A program made the translations under genes and the position numbers. Under the pieces are notes generated by a model. That model worked only from the letters and a program-made list of their open reading frames with translations. It ran no database searches and was not told where the DNA came from. Source: Parachlamydiales bacterium (lineage in GTDB: Bacteria; Chlamydiota; Chlamydiia; Chlamydiales; SM23-39). From it: 64,000 bases of DNA. The stretch spans positions 248,497-312,496 of the forward strand of contig JAIBBX010000003.1 of the NCBI GenBank assembly GCA_019694475.1, written 5' to 3'. The first letter of the stretch is position 1; every line of letters begins with the position of its first letter. Below are positions 13,769 through 22,713 of the stretch, piece by piece.

Positions 13769-14860
13769 CTATCTTGATATTTGCAAGATAGCTTCAGCTG
13801 CTTCCCTAGACGCAGAGCTACGTCCTAAGATGTTTTGTACTGTTTGGCACGCGTTTAGGCAGCGGGCTCGCGCGCCTGGATCGTTGAGAAGCTTCTCAGC
13901 CCAAAAAAAGAGTTTGGCTTCTGTAAAATTAGGGCCGAATAATTCTGGAAATACCGCATCGCCTGCCACGATGTTGGGAAGGGCGTAGAAGGGTAGGTCG
14001 ATATGAAAAATTTTTTGAGCGAGAAATAGATCGAGCTGTCTGATCGCAAAACAGACCACTGTCGGTGTTCCATGAAGGGCCAGCTCGAGTGTAACCGTCC
14101 CCGAAGTGGCTAAAGCAAGCCGGCAGGAGCGCATCAGTTCGTAGCTATCTTCGGGAGGGACGATGATGGCATCGCCAGCATCGATAGGATATTGAGTTTT
14201 TGAGATGGCGATTTGGAGGCTTGGGTCGAGGGCTTTGAGCCTTCTCGCGATTTTGAGCTGCAGAGGGAGATTGCGCTCAATCTCAGTTTTTCGGCTGCCC
14301 GGGAAAATAGCCAGGATTTTTCCGGAAAACTTGCCGGTTGGCTTGAATTGGGAAATGGGAAGCGCGAGGGGATGGCCCACATACTGCACATTCAATGATG
14401 TATTGGCAAAGCAGGCCTTTTCAAAGGGGAAAAGAGTGAGGAGCAGATCGAGGTTTTGCGCCATGAGCGGGATCCGCTTTTTGCCCCATGCCCAAACGGT
14501 CGGACAGATGAAATGGATCAATTTGCCTTGGTAACCTTTTTTGCGAAGAGAGCGCTCGAGTCTGAGGTGAAGTCCTGGGTAGTCAATGAAGACAGCGGCT
14601 TTGGGCTGCAGTTTTAGGATCTTGTTCCGGATAGAGAAAAACATCCAGATCAATTTAGGCAGCGCTGGGAGAATGTCGATAAACCCCATCACTTTGAGCG
14701 ATTCCATGCGGAAAAAGCTCTGGATGGGAAGTTTTCTCATTTCGGGGCCTGCGACAGCACCGATTTTGAGATCGGGACGCATTTTGAGAAGTTCTGCGAT
14801 CAGCTTTGCGCCATTGATGTCGCCGCTCATCTCTCCTGTTGCTACAAACAAATCGATCAT
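13769..14860 (-). CDS. lpxB: Lipid-A-disaccharide synthase
   Basis: N-terminal ATGEMSGD. Length and layout are typical of LpxB (GT19). Confidence 0.85.
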   Translation of the reverse strand: MIDLFVATGEMSGDINGAKLIAELLKMRPDLKIGAVAGPEMRKLPIQSFFRMESLKVMGFIDILPALPKLIWMFFSIRNKILKLQPKAAVFIDYPGLHLRLERSLRKKGYQGKLIHFICPTVWAWGKKRIPLMAQNLDLLLTLFPFEKACFANTSLNVQYVGHPLALPISQFKPTGKFSGKILAIFPGSRKTEIERNLPLQLKIARRLKALDPSLQIAISKTQYPIDAGDAIIVPPEDSYELMRSCRLALATSGTVTLELALHGTPTVVCFAIRQLDLFLAQKIFHIDLPFYALPNIVAGDAVFPELFGPNFTEAKLFFWAEKLLNDPGARARCLNACQTVQNILGRSSASREAAEAILQISR

Positions 14861-14903
14861 GCTAAATTTTCCCGCTCATTTATTTTAGCAAATTGGAGAA
14901 ATT

Positions 14904-15251
14904 ATGGCTTTACCTGTGAGTTTTGATCGTACTTCTGCTTCTGCGGCCCAGTCTACGCTTCCTCCCGCAAACGATGCTGTTGAGAAGGTAAAAAGGGTAA
15001 AAGCAAACACATGCATGTATCGTAATGCTGAAACTAATTTAAGATGTAGAAGGTATGCCTTTTCATTTGATCCATGCAAATGTTCAAAGATATTTTGCAG
15101 AGAACACAAATTCCCTTTTCAACATAAATGCACATTCAATCACCGTAAAGCCTATCAGGAGCAATTAAGGAGAAAACTTATGGGAGAGCCCGATGAACTG
15201 AAGGTAAATCGAGAGCATAAGGATCTCCCTCCCGAAAATGGGGCCTGCTAA
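14904..15251 (+). CDS. Small protein with an AN1-type zinc finger
   Basis: C-K-C-SKIF-C-RE-H-KFPFQ-H-K-C exactly fits the AN1 second half, C-x(1-2)-C-x4-C-x2-H-x5-H-x-C. GGAGA SD 5 nt upstream. Confidence 0.7.
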   Translation: MALPVSFDRTSASAAQSTLPPANDAVEKVKRVKANTCMYRNAETNLRCRRYAFSFDPCKCSKIFCREHKFPFQHKCTFNHRKAYQEQLRRKLMGEPDELKVNREHKDLPPENGAC

Positions 15252-16003
15252 GTTTTTAGGTGAGACAGAATCCAAGAAACGCCCTGCTTGAAGATTTCAG
15301 GCGGGGTGCCATGCCCCATTTGCCCAACCGATGGATAAATCTGTAAATCCACCTGCGCAGTTCTCGTTTTCTTCCTGGCGACGAGTTCCATAGCAAAATC
15401 AAAACACTCTTTTGTGCCAACCCGAGTATCTTCATTTCCAATGAAAAGTTTGATGTGGCGGTCTCCCAATGCATCGGCAAGATGGAATAGATCGAGGCTA
15501 TTTGCGATCGGGTTATGCTGAATTTCCCGGAATTCTCGGATGTAACGGAGTTGTGTTAAAGGCGCAAAGCAGGCTAAATTGCGAAAACGAGAGTCGCGCG
15601 CAGCCAGGTGCGCAGCAATCATCGCTCCTCTAGAAAGTCCGGCCGTTGACATTTTGCTTGAATCGGCAAATTGTTCCTTGATCGCAAAGTCGACTGCCTC
15701 TTGCACTTGATCTAAAAATTCGGCGATCCGGTTTTGTCCGTTTTGCATATCGTCTGCCCAAATTTTCATCGCATCTTTAGCGGGCAAATCATTTTCATGG
15801 CCTGGCAGGGTCATGGAAAAAATCCGGACCATTTCTCCTTGAAGAAATTGGACGGGCTGGTTGAATGGATCAAGACATAAGCTGTCTGGGCCTGATATCG
15901 CAAAGTAAAAGAGGGCGGGGAGAGGGCCATGATCGAGAGCGGGCCCTGTATGGTAGAGGGTGATATCGGGAGCAACGCTAAGCGCATTACACCGGTTTTT
16001 CAT
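15248..16003 (-). CDS. Alpha/beta hydrolase (carboxylesterase/dienelactone hydrolase-like)
   Basis: Nucleophile elbow GLSRGA and a C-terminal His (GQMGHG). The start is probably MKNRC at 16003. The track start at 16075 overlaps pcnB. Confidence 0.7.
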   Translation of the reverse strand: MKNRCNALSVAPDITLYHTGPALDHGPLPALFYFAISGPDSLCLDPFNQPVQFLQGEMVRIFSMTLPGHENDLPAKDAMKIWADDMQNGQNRIAEFLDQVQEAVDFAIKEQFADSSKMSTAGLSRGAMIAAHLAARDSRFRNLACFAPLTQLRYIREFREIQHNPIANSLDLFHLADALGDRHIKLFIGNEDTRVGTKECFDFAMELVARKKTRTAQVDLQIYPSVGQMGHGTPPEIFKQGVSWILSHLKT

Positions 16004-17234
16004 CGCTCTTTCTTCTCCGGCGTCTTCTTCTTCTCCGTCTTGGATGAGGAGCTTCGATTGGCTCGTGAGAGGCAAAAGAGGCTTCGGTCCAAACAGTGTA
16101 GTGCGAAAGAAGTTCTGGATTGATTCCTGCTCGCAGCTTCAGAAGATGCAGCGCGTATGGGAAAAAGGCATCGCGAGGCGGTTTTGGACGGCGCAATTTG
16201 CCATCCAGCGGGATCAATCGGAATTGCGAAGTCATAATGAATCCCATGATCCCTCGCATTCTGCGCGGTATGCTGAAGAATGGATGGAAAATTTGATCGA
16301 TTGTCCGATGAGCCATCTCGGCAATTTGACCTAAGTGGAGAGGCCTGTCCTCTCTTTTGTTTCTCTCGGTGACATTTTCTTGAAAAAGCGGGAAAATAAG
16401 CGCGGCGAGCAAAAGCGATCGATCGAAAGAGGTGTTTTTGCGCACTTCATCATCAATCGAACCAAGAAGCTGCAAAGCTTGGTTGTTGGGTTTATCAAGA
16501 AACGCTGCGAGCGGCTGCGAAAGCGCTTTTAAGAGGCCATATTCATTGAGCAGGTGGAAAAAGGCCTTTGATGAACCTGATTCCAGCATGCGCAGGAGCT
16601 CTTCAAAAATGCGCGCTTGCGAACTTTTTAAAATCTCACCCTTGCAATTGAGCAGCGCTTCAAATGTGGGATGATGGATCTCAAAATTGAAACGGGCGCA
16701 AAATTTGATCAGCCGGATCATCCGGACTGGGTCTTGGATGAAACGGACATCGGGTTTGCCGATTGTGCGGAGGATCTTTTTCTCAATATCTGGATAGCCA
16801 TCGACATAGTCGATCACTTTTTGGCTTTCAGGATCATAAAAAAGTCCGTTGATCGTAAAATCTCTGCGCAAAACGTCTTGCTCTTCCGAACCCCACTCAT
16901 TGTCGCGGACAATAAGCCCCGCTTCTTCAGTGGCGCCGGAACGAAATGTTGAAACTTCGATCACCTTTTGGCCAAACCGGATGTGGGCTAGTCGAAATCG
17001 TCTGCCAATGAGGATGGCGTTGCGGAAAAGAGCTTTAATCTCTTCTGGCCTTGCCGATGTCGATACGTCGAAATCTTTAGGGCGGGTTCCGAGTAAAAGG
17101 TCGCGCACTCCGCCGCCGACCAAATAGGCGGTATGGCCTGCTTGACGCAGCTTTTGGATCACGTAAAAGGCGTGGCTGTCAATTTTGTCGGGAGCGATCT
17201 TGTGCTCATCGACGTGGTAAATTTTTGGTTGCAA
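15987..17234 (-). CDS. pcnB: Poly(A) polymerase / tRNA nucleotidyltransferase family
   Basis: AYLVGGGVRDLLLG..KDFDV motif. TTG start. The C-terminus has 10 consecutive Arg residues (16011-16040). Confidence 0.85.
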   Translation of the reverse strand: MQPKIYHVDEHKIAPDKIDSHAFYVIQKLRQAGHTAYLVGGGVRDLLLGTRPKDFDVSTSARPEEIKALFRNAILIGRRFRLAHIRFGQKVIEVSTFRSGATEEAGLIVRDNEWGSEEQDVLRRDFTINGLFYDPESQKVIDYVDGYPDIEKKILRTIGKPDVRFIQDPVRMIRLIKFCARFNFEIHHPTFEALLNCKGEILKSSQARIFEELLRMLESGSSKAFFHLLNEYGLLKALSQPLAAFLDKPNNQALQLLGSIDDEVRKNTSFDRSLLLAALIFPLFQENVTERNKREDRPLHLGQIAEMAHRTIDQIFHPFFSIPRRMRGIMGFIMTSQFRLIPLDGKLRRPKPPRDAFFPYALHLLKLRAGINPELLSHYTVWTEASFASHEPIEAPHPRRRRRRRRRRKSDEKPV

Positions 17235-17355: not shown

Positions 17356-18207
17356 TCAGGAATTTTTAGCGAATTTTTCAAGAGTTTCCTTTGCTGTCGC
17401 TTGTAGCTTTTGCCATTCGGCATTATCGAGTATGCCTTTATATTCTGCTGTTTTAAATGGGGTGGCCCGAATCTGCGTATAGAATTTTCTTAAGGCATCG
17501 ACTTGCTGTTTCGTAAGCCCAATTTTCTCTACGAACCCATCCATGAAATCGTCAAGGTCGCTGTACATGAATAAACCATCGTACATATCTCTTGGTGTGG
17601 AGAAGAACGTTTCGCTTTGATCTACCCAGCTTCTCTTCTGATTCTCTGTATCAGAATATTTAAAAATCCAGTAAAGAATAGAATCGAGCCAGTCTTCTTG
17701 ATTTTCTGATTCATATTTCATCTTTGCAAAAGCGTCTAATACTTTTTGCGCCATTCTTTGAATTTTTTGCCACTCGGGATCAGACAACATTTTTTTTCCA
17801 TCAAGCATAGGAGGATTTGTGGGGGCGTAGACCTCAGGATTGTCTCCATAACTATCAAGAGCTCGAATCAATTTGGATATCTTGCGTTTCTGTTTCCAAG
17901 AAAGGCCTAGCTCATTAGCTTTTTTAATAAATTCAACAACTGCTGAATCATCAAACAAACTGCACATGATTTCGCCAAAGTCACAAGGCTTATGGATTTC
18001 AAATTTGACCCAGGCTCTTTCTTGATAATCCGCACTTGCAATTTCTTTAACGCATGAGATAATATTGTTTATCCAGAGATTTCTTTTCATAATGTTTTCT
18101 TGATTAAGGTCTTGTCCATTGAACTTAAATTCTTCTAAAGGGATGTATACTTCTTCCGATTTTCGGTTATATTTCATGTGTTTCTCATCAAATTTACTTC
18201 CATTCAT
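17356..18207 (-). CDS. Immunity-like protein with two tandem homologous domains (function unknown)
   Basis: 283-aa ORF overlapping the upstream stop. Domains aa ~40-166 and ~170-283 both end in (D/N)xEWQK(I/L)Q..A...L..FAK. The first 32 aa copy the upstream protein's tail. An alternative start is M40 at 18090. Confidence 0.6.
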   Translation of the reverse strand: MNGSKFDEKHMKYNRKSEEVYIPLEEFKFNGQDLNQENIMKRNLWINNIISCVKEIASADYQERAWVKFEIHKPCDFGEIMCSLFDDSAVVEFIKKANELGLSWKQKRKISKLIRALDSYGDNPEVYAPTNPPMLDGKKMLSDPEWQKIQRMAQKVLDAFAKMKYESENQEDWLDSILYWIFKYSDTENQKRSWVDQSETFFSTPRDMYDGLFMYSDLDDFMDGFVEKIGLTKQQVDALRKFYTQIRATPFKTAEYKGILDNAEWQKLQATAKETLEKFAKNS

Positions 18208-19882
18208 CTAAATAGACAAAATCCTCTATGGGAATGTGTATTTCTTGGTGTTTATTTGTATATTTTTCGCCTTTTGAGTCGAATTTGTTCCCATATTTAT
18301 CTAAATGATTACCGTTTTGAGTATATTCTATATAGGGGTTGTGTTGCCATACGTTTGGACTCTTTGGGTCTCCGGGCATAACACGCACGTTTGTGTGTCT
18401 ATTTTGGGGATGAAAATAGACCATTCCCCCATTTTTTTGAGAAAACTCAGCAATAAAGCTATCTGGCAATCCCTTAGGTCTTGGGAAAGTTTTATAACCC
18501 ATTTCATGAAGCGTTTTTCGAATTGTGGCTTCCGATAAATTTTGCCCTCTTAATGTTTTGATGTAGGCTTCGTTTTCCCTCATTTTCTTGAGTTCTGCGG
18601 AGTGCTTTTCTCCCCATTCCACAGCTTTTTCAATCACCTTGGTTTTCTGCCCGGGCGTGGAAAGGGTCTCGAGAGTTAACACAGCGTTTGCTTTACGGAT
18701 TTCCTGATAGGCTTTGGATGCACCGGCAAAGGCGATAACTTCAACCCCATTTTTTGCAATCAGATACCCGAGATATTCTCCCTTTTCTTTCAACGACAAA
18801 GAATCTGAGTCGTAAATGAGAGCTTTGAGTTTTGGAGAAACTGCTTCAACGATTTCAGGAAGGGAATGGGTTGAGACAAACTGGATGAAATTATTACATG
18901 CGTTGTACATTTCTTCGGATAACTTGATGCCTAATGGATCTGCAAACATCCAAAGAGTGGATCCCAATCCTTTGGCGGAGCTTAACAAGCCGGGGAAGAA
19001 TTCAGTTCCAAACTCTTTAAAGCCTTCCTTTGAGCCTGAATAGAACCCTGTTGCAAAGTCTATCCGAGAAGATTCAAGCGGCTTTGAATGAATTCCTGAA
19101 GAAAGAAAGTCTTGGATCGATTGTTCGAAATTCCCGGTTTCAAAATATACGACGGCTCGCTCTAGGAACGCCTCTTTGTTGTTTGGATTTTGAGAAAGCG
19201 ACTGATTCAACGCGGCAATGGCTTCATCATATAAACCTACTTGTGAATAGGCCATTCCTTCGATCAAATAATAGTCGAGGTTTTTCAAGGCGCTATCTTG
19301 AGTGCCAATCACTCTAGCAATGTCGTTGACCGATTCGAAGTACTTTCCTTGATCGTAATAGATCAACCCTCTTTGGTAAAACGCACCCGTGTCATTGTGG
19401 TTTTCTATGCAAAAAGTGTAAATTTCGTTACAGGCATTTGCAATATTATCAAATCCAGAGGACAAGATCCTGAGAGCAATTGGCTGTTCGGCTTGGGTTT
19501 TGATTAGGCATGCTTTTTTTCGATTGACTATCGGCTCATACCAAGCAATTTGTTCTAGTGCGTATTTTGACTCGTCTGCTTTCCATTTTGCGATGATTCG
19601 ATCCATTTCATCGATTTCTGCTGAAAGAGAAGAGTTAAATTCATTGTAGTTTTTTTCTGCGTATTCAATAAGATGCAAAAATTCATTTCGGTATTTTGAA
19701 TACGAGTAGCAGCAATATCCAAGTGAATAACGAGAAGGGAAAAAACATCCGTTTTCTCTTGCTTCGTCAATTGCTGTGCATGCAATTTGTGAAGGAATGC
19801 CGATACTAATTTCTTCCGTGCATGATCTGCAATAGGATACAAGCTGCAGAAATGGTAAGAAAAGAATCCAAAATTTAAACAT
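18194..19882 (-). CDS. Secreted TPR-repeat protein with a C-terminal toxin-like domain (unassigned family)
   Basis: Signal peptide MFKFWILFLPFLQLVSYC. TPR repeats run from ~GAFYQRGLIYYDQGKY to FETGNFEQSIQDF. The C-terminal ~130 aa read ...VRVMPGDPKSPNVWQHNPYIEYTQNGNHLDKYGN...HIPIEDF. Confidence 0.6.
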   Translation of the reverse strand: MFKFWILFLPFLQLVSYCRSCTEEISIGIPSQIACTAIDEARENGCFFPSRYSLGYCCYSYSKYRNEFLHLIEYAEKNYNEFNSSLSAEIDEMDRIIAKWKADESKYALEQIAWYEPIVNRKKACLIKTQAEQPIALRILSSGFDNIANACNEIYTFCIENHNDTGAFYQRGLIYYDQGKYFESVNDIARVIGTQDSALKNLDYYLIEGMAYSQVGLYDEAIAALNQSLSQNPNNKEAFLERAVVYFETGNFEQSIQDFLSSGIHSKPLESSRIDFATGFYSGSKEGFKEFGTEFFPGLLSSAKGLGSTLWMFADPLGIKLSEEMYNACNNFIQFVSTHSLPEIVEAVSPKLKALIYDSDSLSLKEKGEYLGYLIAKNGVEVIAFAGASKAYQEIRKANAVLTLETLSTPGQKTKVIEKAVEWGEKHSAELKKMRENEAYIKTLRGQNLSEATIRKTLHEMGYKTFPRPKGLPDSFIAEFSQKNGGMVYFHPQNRHTNVRVMPGDPKSPNVWQHNPYIEYTQNGNHLDKYGNKFDSKGEKYTNKHQEIHIPIEDFVYLDEWK

Positions 19883-19969: not shown

Positions 19970-20004
19970 GACTGGTCTATGCTAAGAAAAAATTGAGGTT
20001 TGAT

Positions 20005-22713
20005 ATGAGATGGCTCCTTTATGCAATCGCTGTACCCTGTTTTTCTCTTCCGACGGGCGCCGTTTTTGTGCAGGGCCAAGGGGAACTTCGCTCTACGGAT
20101 CCGCTCCAGATGGAAGTCCAAGCAGCCGACCGTTCGATCATCCACTGGGAGGCGTTCGATGTTGCAGCTCCTGAGTCAGTTATCTTTTCTCTTCCCTCAG
20201 CAGATTGCGCGCTGCTCAATCGGGTGCTAGGAAATGCTAGGAGCGAAATTTTCGGTAAAATTTCCTCGAATGGGCAAATCATTCTCCTCAACCCGAATGG
20301 AATCTTCGTTGGTAAAGAAGCTTGCATCGACACCGCTGGCTGGATCGCAGCAACATTCGATCTTCAAGACAAAACATTTCTTCAGTCCAAGGAATGGCAA
20401 TTTGCAGGCTCTTCTCAGAAGCCAATAGAAATCGAAGGAACCATCCGTGCTCCAAAAATCTCACTTTTCGGGGACAATATCTCTCTTTCAGGATCGTTGA
20501 AAGGGGAATCGATCTTTGTCGGGGGAAGCCGTGAAGGAAAAGATGTTCTCATTCAGAATGCCTCTTTCGTGACGATTTCTCCAAGTGCAGAAATTGAGAC
20601 GATTCGGGATGGCCAGGCCATTTTCTTTTCGAAAGGCGATCTAGATTTCGGAGGACATGTCTATTCTCCAAATGGATTTGTTGAAGTTTCTGCGAAGCAA
20701 AATCTTGCATTCCATGGCCTTGTCGATACAGATAAAACAGGAACGCTCCTCCTCGATCCCAACCAGATCGATATCGTTTTAGGCGGCGCAGGGACCACTA
20801 TTCCGGCCCCGTTTGCTGCCTTTTATAATGGAAGCCCTGCTGTTAGCGCGACAGTGGCGAGCGCAGATCTGATCAACCAGCTGGGGCTCACGAATGTGAC
20901 CATCCAAACAAACAGCTCGATTCCTGGGGGCTCCGGAAATATCACTCTGCATCCAGGAGCTACGATTACTTGGGCTTCGGGAACCAATCTAACCCTGCAA
21001 GCCGATCAGTCAATTCTGATCTACGATTTGATCCACTCGACTGCACCCAACAGTCAAATTGCTCTGTTCGCAAACCAAGGGGATATTGTGATTACGAGCG
21101 ATTTCGGAGGATCGGGAGCTCAAGCACAAATCATCGTAGAAGAATTTCATCCCGTAGGTTTTCCATCCATTATTCTGCAAGCTCCAAACGGTTCGCTGAC
21201 AATGATCGCAGCAAACAATCTTGAAACCAAAGTCCGATCTAACGATCCCGCGAGTTCTGGAGATATACATATAGCAGCCCAATCGCTTAATTTCACAGCT
21301 GCTGCTGCACTTGCTGCAGATGCGAATGCGGGAATTCAAAACGGGAGAGGAGATATCTATGTAAATGTGACAGGGCCATTGAATTTTACTTCAGGCACAG
21401 GAAACGCCCCGAATCAGGCAAACGCGAATATTGTAACTGGTCTTTCAGGCATGGTCCCGACCGGCGGCAATCTTTACTTCTCTGTTGGTTCTTTGAACTT
21501 TAATTCATCTTCATCCATTACAGGCGTTCAAGGGGCTGCTTCTTTAACTGCATATGGAAGCAGCATGGGGGCAGGGTTTGGGAATGTTACGGGAACCGTT
21601 TTTGGAGATGCTTTATTTCAGAGCGGATATCCGATTGCAAACGGGAGCGGGATCTCCTCATTATTCAGCGGAAATATCGATGTGGCGATTCGAGGGAATC
21701 TAACCATGATTTCTAATTCAGGTCCATCGATCGCTTTTTGCGGTACGGGCATCCAGACTTTATTCACTCTGTCAGGAGCGACTGCTGATGTGAATGTTGC
21801 AATCGGGGGGAATTTAATCGCGATCTCGGGTGGAGGAATGGACTCGGGCGCGGGCTTTGGGGCAACCGGAAACTTATCAGTTGCTGTTGCCGGATCAGCG
21901 ATTTTCCAAGTCACGAACGGAACTGCCGGCGGTCAATCAGGAAATGTGATCTTTTCCCGTGCTGGTTCCGTAGATTTTGCAGCTCGCACGGTTTCATTTA
22001 TCGGCAACAACGGAACCCCTTTGCCAGTGGTTATTCAAGCTCAAAACAACATCACTTTTGCAACGATAGGGGATTTAACTCTCAACTTTGGGTCGTTAAT
22101 TGCCACTACTGGCAATATTACGCTTAGATCCGGCGGATCGATCCATCTGCAAACGGGCACATCTTTGCAGGCAAACCAGCAAATTTTGGCAATCGCTGAC
22201 CGCAATATCGAAATGCTGAATAGCTCTGCCAATTCAACAACGGACCGGATTATCTTCGTCGTGGACAATGCATTCCCTGTAAAACCACTCATAGGATCTG
22301 GCGCTTTCATTACCAACCCATCCACCTTAACGGCCCCGCTCGGCATCTCTATCTACACAGCGCAAAGGGCCAGAAACTCCATCCAAAGCACAACGTTTAA
22401 TGGCGCCACTTTTGTGCCAGGAACGCTCTTTGTCAATACAACTGAAGAGATTTGGTGCACTTACTATCCGAATGGGCTTACAACGTTTCCATTCACGATT
22501 TTCTACAAAGATTGCGAGAATCTTGTCGCCTACCAAGCGAATCTAATCGGATCGGAACTTTTCCGGGATCTGCATCCATACGATGAAGCTTGGGGCTGGT
22601 ACGAGCGGTTTACTCTCGCTGATGATGAGCGTACTGAACCTCATATGATCCGCCGCCGCAACCTCATGTTCGATCTGCCCAAGAGCTGGACAAAGATCGT
22701 CAATCATCCCTGA
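20005..22713 (+). CDS. TPS-domain (filamentous haemagglutinin N-terminal) beta-helical exoprotein, TpsA-like
   Basis: HWEAFDV...LLNRVLGNARSEIFGKISSNGQIILLNPNGIFVG is the haemagg_act/TPS signature with NPNGI. G/S/N/T-rich beta-helix repeats follow. ATG at 20005 with GAGG SD (the track TTG is at 19993). Confidence 0.85.
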   Translation: MRWLLYAIAVPCFSLPTGAVFVQGQGELRSTDPLQMEVQAADRSIIHWEAFDVAAPESVIFSLPSADCALLNRVLGNARSEIFGKISSNGQIILLNPNGIFVGKEACIDTAGWIAATFDLQDKTFLQSKEWQFAGSSQKPIEIEGTIRAPKISLFGDNISLSGSLKGESIFVGGSREGKDVLIQNASFVTISPSAEIETIRDGQAIFFSKGDLDFGGHVYSPNGFVEVSAKQNLAFHGLVDTDKTGTLLLDPNQIDIVLGGAGTTIPAPFAAFYNGSPAVSATVASADLINQLGLTNVTIQTNSSIPGGSGNITLHPGATITWASGTNLTLQADQSILIYDLIHSTAPNSQIALFANQGDIVITSDFGGSGAQAQIIVEEFHPVGFPSIILQAPNGSLTMIAANNLETKVRSNDPASSGDIHIAAQSLNFTAAAALAADANAGIQNGRGDIYVNVTGPLNFTSGTGNAPNQANANIVTGLSGMVPTGGNLYFSVGSLNFNSSSSITGVQGAASLTAYGSSMGAGFGNVTGTVFGDALFQSGYPIANGSGISSLFSGNIDVAIRGNLTMISNSGPSIAFCGTGIQTLFTLSGATADVNVAIGGNLIAISGGGMDSGAGFGATGNLSVAVAGSAIFQVTNGTAGGQSGNVIFSRAGSVDFAARTVSFIGNNGTPLPVVIQAQNNITFATIGDLTLNFGSLIATTGNITLRSGGSIHLQTGTSLQANQQILAIADRNIEMLNSSANSTTDRIIFVVDNAFPVKPLIGSGAFITNPSTLTAPLGISIYTAQRARNSIQSTTFNGATFVPGTLFVNTTEEIWCTYYPNGLTTFPFTIFYKDCENLVAYQANLIGSELFRDLHPYDEAWGWYERFTLADDERTEPHMIRRRNLMFDLPKSWTKIVNHP

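Follow-up and report, generated by a model that had tools for sequence, protein, structure and literature searches.

Orphan cdiA-CT/cdiI and Rhs-CT/rhsI modules are found after the main immunity gene of their loci and start at or before the pre-toxin motif VENN (PMC3150448, Poole et al. 2011). Such modules encode a whole, usually different toxin domain and are generally without start signals (PMC3150448). An earlier note on a 64,000-nucleotide (nt) stretch of contig JAIBBX010000003.1 from a Parachlamydiales bacterium (the whole stretch is called the window here) invoked this orphan-tip logic for a diverged duplication at the junction of two minus-strand genes. The first is a toxin-like open reading frame (ORF) of 562 amino acids (aa) at 18194..19882, with its stop codon TAA at 18196..18194, and the second is a downstream, immunity-like ORF at 17356..18207, of 283 aa when counted from its annotated ATG (M1); the two overlap by 14 nt. 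We confirm that the C-terminal tail of the toxin-like gene is duplicated head to tail at this junction. The feature is probably (we put it at about 0.6) a scar left when the final 31 codons of that gene (93 nt) were duplicated in tandem and in register and 2 nt were then deleted.

The repeat consists of unit 1 (18304..18212, minus strand; 93 nt, 31 codons, LDKYGNKFDSKGEKYTNKHQEIHIPIEDFVY), which reads TTAGATAAATATGGG...GTCTAT and encodes LDKY...FVY, and unit 2 (18211..18121, minus strand; 91 nt, TTAGATGAAT--GGAAGT...AAGTTC), which encodes (LDE)/..GSKFDEKHMKYNRKSEEVYIPLEEFKF. At the protein level, residues 531-557 of the toxin-like protein (GNKFDSKGEKYTNKHQEIHIPIEDFVY) align with residues 3-29 of the downstream protein (GSKFDEKHMKYNRKSEEVYIPLEEFKF) at 13/27 identical and 20/27 positive positions (BLASTP, E=7e-6). 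The local BLOSUM62 score of the two tails is 80, against 24.9 +/- 5.2 in shuffled sequences (maximum 59), and none of 5000 shuffles scored as high; similarity no better than the shuffled background, which had been named as grounds for abandoning the claim, is thus not what was found. When the C-terminal domain of the toxin-like protein was compared with the whole 64-kb window by tblastn, a single extra place was matched, and this was unit 2 (E=1.7e-4). A hidden Markov model (HMM) of the domain family also aligns unit 2 to the tail, over profile positions 78-105 of 105 (14.4 bits). DNA identity, judged by eye to be 65-70%, is lower when counted: 52/93 (56%) in the register first drawn and 56/91 (61.5%) for the refined units with a 2-nt gap. 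The first of these values is the top of all offsets across both genes, lying z=5.5 above the others (runner-up 44, mean 26.1, standard deviation (SD) 4.7). Tandem Repeats Finder did not detect the repeat, the copies being too diverged, and a seed-based repeat search returned only a spurious 73-nt pair and not the tail repeat. A stringent local DNA alignment of both units was not significant (83/1000 shuffles reached its score); the repeat stands out from chance only when the DNA is compared in register or when the proteins are compared. The units are nevertheless adjacent, in the same orientation and in register, with similarity above chance, and together they form a tandem duplication.

The failure of DNA repeat finders and of stringent DNA alignment, in a region that is A+T-rich and of low complexity, is what might be expected if lysine/glutamate-rich stretches resembled each other by chance, or if the repeat were an artefact of assembly. 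We reject both, and consider their combined probability to be negligible. Besides the shuffling, BLASTP and in-register DNA results (the last 5.5 SD above other offsets), the independent family HMM matches unit 2 and the extra length at the junction equals one unit. An assembler would also have had little to be misled by, as at 61% identity the copies have no long k-mers in common.

The two head-to-tail units of the earlier note stand, but their limits do not: the repeat starts 10 nt further 5' than was drawn, with TTAGATAAAT in unit 1 and TTAGATGAAT in unit 2 identical at 9/10 positions. The last residues of the toxin-like protein, LDEWK, are therefore the start of unit 2, and the 2-nt gap of unit 2 relative to unit 1 is placed after these first ten bases, between 18202 and 18201, following TTAGATGAAT. 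There is no spacer between the units, which are offset by 93 nt up to the gap and by 91 nt beyond it. Unit 1 is the tail actually used by the toxin-like protein and contains the near-invariant histidine of the family (H549), in place of which unit 2 has a tyrosine. Read in the toxin frame, unit 2 gives LDEWK and then the TAA at 18196..18194, so that translation stops five codons in and the protein ends ...HIPIEDFVY-LDEWK, a normal-length C-terminus for its family. Read in the +1 frame, unit 2 gives TAG-ATG (18210..18205) and then NGSKFD...; the TAG lies at 18210..18208 and the ATG, which is the annotated M1, at 18207..18205 on the minus strand, inside unit 2. This ATG derives from a change of GATAAAT to GATGAAT and has GAGGA 14 nt upstream, and it is only from here that the downstream ORF opens in its frame. 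A second in-frame ATG (M11, 18175..18177, minus strand) lies further on, its first base 17 nt beyond the end of the toxin stop codon.

Six-frame scans with the domain HMM covered 26 related loci (numbered with the prefix L), of which L001 and L005 are orthologous to the window pair, and found a second tail in the window only. Unit 2 is followed by a post-tail spacer of 30 nt (18091..18120, minus strand) that is homologous to the 26-nt spacer of L001, and it is this net gain of 4 nt that puts unit 2 in frame with the downstream gene. After the spacer comes the sequence ATGA (18087..18090, minus strand), whose ATG is M40, the conserved start of the family, and whose embedded TGA is a relic of the ancestral toxin stop (ACATTATGA in the window versus AAATTATGA in L001). 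The ancestral overlapping stop/start is thus kept at the window junction. The HMM matches of the domain and of the immunity gene, measured end to start, are 119 nt apart in the window as against 20-27 nt in L001, L005 and L007, and the excess DNA is therefore one repeat unit. A third partial repeat, suggested by NGQDLN after unit 2 and NGNHLD before unit 1, was considered and rejected, the NGQDLN stretch aligning to the post-tail spacer of L001. As a separate observation, the tail at 18233-18316 (minus strand) has a weak seven-residue periodicity (GNHLDKY / GNKFDSK / GEKYTNK) at the place where unit 1, unit 2 and L001 all have 7 residues more than the family consensus. This periodicity may be an older micro-duplication, and the stretch forms the low-confidence loop of the AlphaFold2 (AF2) model of the domain.

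Unit 1, unit 2, the ancestral spacer and the ATGA follow one another in sequence, and a plain in-register duplication with a 2-nt deletion explains this anatomy. We suggest that slippage or unequal crossing-over, at the short junction (T)AT/TTAGAT, first produced an in-frame duplication of 93 nt. A deletion of 2 nt, ten bases into unit 2, would then have shifted the toxin frame onto a TAA five codons later, a frameshift that may have been tolerated or even favoured because it removed the redundant second tail. The remainder of unit 2 would have joined the frame of the downstream gene, read from a new ATG that overlaps the toxin ORF, and a start beside the new stop of the toxin-like gene would keep the tight stop/start coupling that is typical of the family. 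If so, unit 2 would now be a dispensable and probably unstructured N-terminal leader of the immunity-like protein and not a second toxin tip.

As unit 2 and the downstream gene are read in one frame with no intervening stop, and as a relative, P0154, is a toxin-immunity fusion, one could also imagine that a programmed +1 frameshift, or an error of assembly, carries the toxin-like protein through unit 2 into the downstream gene. The chance of this appears very slight, and programmed frameshifting is rejected. Neither GAT GAA TGG AAG TAA nor GATGAATGGAAGTAA contains a slippery or shifty motif, the product would be a two-tailed toxin-immunity fusion unlike 146/150 family members, the TGA of the ancestral stop survives in the ATGA, and relatives have separate genes. 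P0154 itself is a frameshift fusion that looks decayed, with its tail read out of frame.

Unit 2 arose within this orthologous group, since it has the lineage-specific 7-residue insertion (KFD...KY) common to unit 1 and L001, and since, of 233 family proteins compared with it, the L001 orthologue matches best, through its tail. The age and state of unit 2 are the points that weigh against a simple duplication scar. In DNA, unit 2 stands as far from unit 1 as from the L001 tail, with 61.5% nt identity in either comparison; between unit 1 and L001 the figure is 71%. The protein identities for these three comparisons are 15/31, 17/31 and 18/31, respectively. Third-position identity between the units is 15/30, the same as that of the whole genes between the window and L001 (0.47-0.50), making the copies old; between the window and L005 it is 0.37-0.38, which we take as near saturation. 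The split of the copies is therefore about as old as the split between the window and L001 organisms, or else the source of unit 2 was an allele just as distant. Unit 2 also keeps 17/27 residues where simulation gives a mean of 12/27 (P=0.002-0.01; by BLOSUM score, P=5e-5 to 3e-3), and the residues kept are the conserved ones of the toxin family. This hints that unit 2 was long under protein-level selection, here or in another allele, and a purely neutral relic of such age might be expected to look worse. On the other side, both the number of changes in unit 2 and their even distribution among codon positions are in keeping with relaxed constraint. Unit 2 has 19 branch-specific changes (6/5/8 by codon position; 7 synonymous and 12 non-synonymous) compared with 11 in unit 1 and 11 in L001, and from the three-way node it has changed at 23/81 nt plus one indel, with 10 residue changes. 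When 23 random substitutions were simulated in 81 nt, the frame stayed open in 27-42% of trials. These counts rest on 27-31 codons of one genome and are too weak to settle the matter of selection.

The equidistance of unit 2 could be accounted for by a recombination scar, in which a diverged allele of the same orthologous locus supplied either unit 2 together with the spacer and immunity gene or, conversely, the toxin body with unit 1. It is possible that such recombination was unequal, or illegitimate and facilitated by homology, with the tails already diverged when they were joined. The unit 2 protein is indeed slightly nearer to L001 than to unit 1, its substitutions are conservative and show the pattern of a working toxin tail, and the family acts elsewhere as a polymorphic toxin system. 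L026 carries a true orphan domain fragment after its immunity gene (L026:843-1010), there are arrays of two to four immunity genes (L022:2471-3594, L023:150-1591), and P0154 is a fusion. Toxins have decayed or been lost while immunity genes were kept, as in L007 (frameshifted toxin at L007:501-808), in L011 (toxin remnant at L011:959-1018 beside an intact immunity gene), and in L004, L006 and L010, which have immunity-like genes and no toxin. With copies about as diverged as the species and with orphan fragments and arrays in the family, unequal recombination has to be entertained, though we regard it as unlikely. The unit is an exact, in-register and in-frame 93 nt with a left end that matches at 9/10 positions, which fits a local duplication and which an illegitimate join would have produced only by luck. 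The third-position divergence of toxin and immunity genes from L001 is alike (0.47 versus 0.50), hence there is no sign of separate histories, and the chromosomal neighbourhood (pcnB, S9 peptidase, LpxB) is conserved and common to L005. Moreover, no immunity gene lies between the tails and there is no alternative tip. A comparison with related loci, which the earlier note had proposed as a check for alternative tips, shows none in the orthologues L001 and L005, whose tip is that of the window.

The signs of protein-level conservation in unit 2, which exceed the expectation from random substitution, would also be explained if translated unit 2 has been retained by selection as a copy of the toxin tail on the immunity-like protein, where it could act as a mimic or competitor or tune binding. 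In that case the protein would have a built-in tail mimic that helps it to engage or regulate the toxin, kept for about as long as this lineage and its nearest known relative have been apart. The open frame does begin at an ATG that overlaps the toxin stop, with a Shine-Dalgarno (SD)-like site before it, and 7/19 of the unit 2-specific changes are synonymous versus about 17% expected (P=0.03). This explanation seems improbable to us, given that the extension occurs in one genome and is lacking from 8/8 homologues, that its AF2 confidence is low and it does not dock on the domains, and that the unit 2-specific changes are even over codon positions. The near-invariant histidine has been lost, the frame had a chance of 0.27-0.42 of staying open even if neutral, and the statistics rest on 27 codons.

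The start of the downstream gene is indeed ambiguous: both of the candidates in the earlier note, 18207 (M1) and 18090 (M40), are correctly placed, and the ATG at 18177 (M11) makes a third. The conserved immunity-like gene runs from M40 (17356..18090, minus strand; 244 aa). All of the eight downstream homologues (8/8; 245-255 aa) start at a methionine aligned with M40, in the motif MI[KA]KN.WI.NIL, and the 39-residue extension is therefore unique to the window genome; its residues are otherwise found only in an identical NCBI record (P0002). The 283-aa form is accordingly no conserved full-length family, and the annotated protein very probably carries 39 residues foreign to the conserved family. 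In NCBI the 283-aa product is K1X28_06655, from a Parachlamydiales metagenome-assembled genome (MAG). In the AF2 model of the downstream protein, residues 1-40 have a pLDDT of 40-58 and are undocked, and most of its two domains are at 80-93. In seven other pairs the immunity start lies between -8 and +20 nt of the toxin stop, and the corresponding distances in the window are -14 nt for M1, +16 nt for M11 and +103 nt for M40. M1 alone of the three is preceded by a predicted SD-like site, GAGGA (-5.8 kcal/mol, 14 nt away); before M40 there is none (-0.5 kcal/mol). Judged from these sequence features, initiation has probably moved upstream to M1 (18207) or M11 (18177), staying coupled to the new stop of the toxin-like gene. 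A promoter and terminator scan returned fewer sites than in shuffled sequence.

From M40 onwards the downstream protein consists of two tandem all-alpha domains similar to DUF7945/SCO4402 (17710..18090 and 17359..17709). Its two halves are 28% identical (E=2e-8), an internal tandem duplication. Residues 45-161 match nearly the full models of Pfam DUF7945 (PF25656; 21.9 bits, below the cut-off of 27) and NCBIfam SCO4402 (NF047838; 42.1 bits, below the cut-off of 50). On these scores the protein is a remote relative of DUF7945/SCO4402 and not a curated member. Foldseek comparison of its model with PDB gave no match at E<0.08, a profile of the immunity family matched no PDB sequences, and literature searches for DUF7945 and SCO4402 found no published function. 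An exact-sequence look-up in a gene-position index found neither of the window proteins. The putative protective role of the downstream protein is suggested by the architecture of the locus.

The upstream toxin-like protein has a hydrophobic, signal-like N-terminus (by eye), TPR repeats at about aa 160-260 (Pfam) and a conserved C-terminal domain. The domain (18212..18544, minus strand; HMM match) ends ...EIHIPIEDFVY and belongs to a mostly chlamydial, unannotated family for which Pfam and NCBIfam searches returned no model. An exhaustive profile search with the domain gave 842 cluster representatives at E<=1e-3, in proteins of 96-1301 aa, nearly all of them with a single matched stretch at the extreme end of the protein. 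By local HMM analysis the domain stops 0-12 residues short of the C-terminus in 146/150 representatives, the exceptions being P0099 and P0140, which have longer C-terminal extensions, P0154, which is fused by a frameshift to its downstream gene, and P0038, which has a spurious secondary partial match; a second tail was seen in none of the 150. The consensus tail is nGKaLDK.GN.V...SPEAHIPLeEFiY, with a histidine that is invariant in an alignment of 27 sequences and >=90% conserved in one of 61. Named sources of the family are Rhabdochlamydiaceae, Neptunichlamydia, Parachlamydiales, Simkaniaceae and 'Verrucomicrobia' MAGs, and every member is labelled 'hypothetical'. A word-indexed homologue search with the domain gave one match only, and a metagenome scan with the full toxin-like protein gave no match.

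The AF2 model of residues 437-562 is confident (pLDDT 91, pTM 0.84) and has two helices followed by a beta-sheet. Foldseek found no match to it, the best E being 0.36 in PDB and 0.08 in BFVD, with many weak matches to E2 enzymes that we regard as noise. A sequence-profile search of solved structures gave a single relative, 8owu chain B ('Transposase', 95 aa); the match is weak (E=0.0011, 18.7 bits), and the end of this chain, LDLNGNIVDAKSPDAHIPY, mirrors the consensus tail of the family. The sequence of 8owu_B is the C-terminal tip of plasmid proteins of the Bacillus cereus group that have choline-binding repeats and a pre-toxin TG (PT-TG) domain, and a small ORF follows each of them. This suggests that the window domain is remotely related to the tip of the Bacillus pre-toxin-TG proteins. 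A literature search for 8OWU gave no result. Ntox50 (motif HxVP; PMC3482391) was also considered as the identity of the domain, and had no Pfam support. Toxic activity of the domain is putative and is suggested, like the role of its partner, by gene architecture.

Pairs of the tip with a DUF7945-like gene were found in the window and in L001, L005, L007, L008, L012, L013, L016, L022 and L024-L027; single-domain DUF7945-like genes follow the toxin genes of the family in L008, L012, L013, L016, L022 and L024-L027. From this architecture we infer that the window pair is a toxin/immunity-like module. The window toxin-like protein is 66% identical to its full-length orthologue in L001 and 47-48% identical to that in L005, and the immunity-like gene is 58% and 44% identical, respectively. 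After the pair come pcnB (poly-A polymerase), an S9-family peptidase and LpxB, in an order common to the window (13769-17234, minus strand) and L005 (L005:8802-12050), and the pair is therefore a stable chromosomal locus. The pcnB ORF of the window ends in a run of ten arginines. The divergent neighbour on the other side (19993-22713, plus strand) encodes 906 aa with a two-partner secretion (TPS) domain at aa 44-184 and has no other Pfam match.

The duplication is an ordinary scar in kind, and it matters mainly for the true start of the downstream gene. For annotation, the conserved start is M40, though initiation in this genome may have moved upstream. For evolution, the junction offers a clean and, in principle, datable snapshot of the remodelling of a toxin/immunity junction, in which a duplication would have been followed by rescue through a frameshift and the leftover captured by the neighbouring gene. 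A more valuable lead is the large unannotated family of toxin-like tips, with hundreds of clusters and a confident fold that matches nothing solved. These tips are regularly paired with DUF7945-like genes, and neither family has a described function.

Compared with CDI and Rhs orphan modules, the window has in common a partial copy of the toxin C-terminus that lies beside an immunity gene and is cut from the main ORF, and L026 shows that true orphan fragments occur in the family. The orphan-tip logic of the earlier note nevertheless does not hold for unit 2, which lies directly after the main tail with no immunity gene between, is limited to the final 31 of some 105 domain residues, belongs to the lineage's own tail type, and has an ATG. 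Three of four features of orphan modules (a position after the immunity gene, a whole domain copied from its boundary, and the absence of start signals) are thus not seen here. As to the fourth, an immunity gene of its own, one does follow unit 2, and it is the sole one at the locus and orthologous to the partner in L001 and L005. The family as a whole is like polymorphic toxin systems (PMC3482391, Zhang et al. 2012) in its domain at the extreme C-terminus, its varied N-termini, the small gene that follows at once, and the immunity-only loci and immunity arrays of relatives. The family tail also has the motif of the Bacillus PT-TG tip (PDB 8owu chain B), LD.xGN.V...SP[ED]AHIP, and the Bacillus proteins have the textbook polymorphic-toxin layout (PMC3482391), but their partner gene is unrelated to DUF7945, and where RHS, LXG or PT-TG might be expected the window protein carries TPR repeats behind a signal-like N-terminus. 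Unlike polymorphic toxins and mobile cassettes, the window pair matches its orthologues along its full length and occupies a syntenic site, and its toxin-like domain is without a Pfam or NCBIfam model or a fold match. The partner, for its part, is a tandem two-domain form of DUF7945/SCO4402 with scores below the cut-offs. The scar itself differs from small 3'-end tandem duplications resolved by a frameshift in that its copies are unusually diverged (61.5% nt identity) and unit 2 is still open and protein-like, but it is like them in its direct repeat, its loss of frame, its new stop and its over-long start call.

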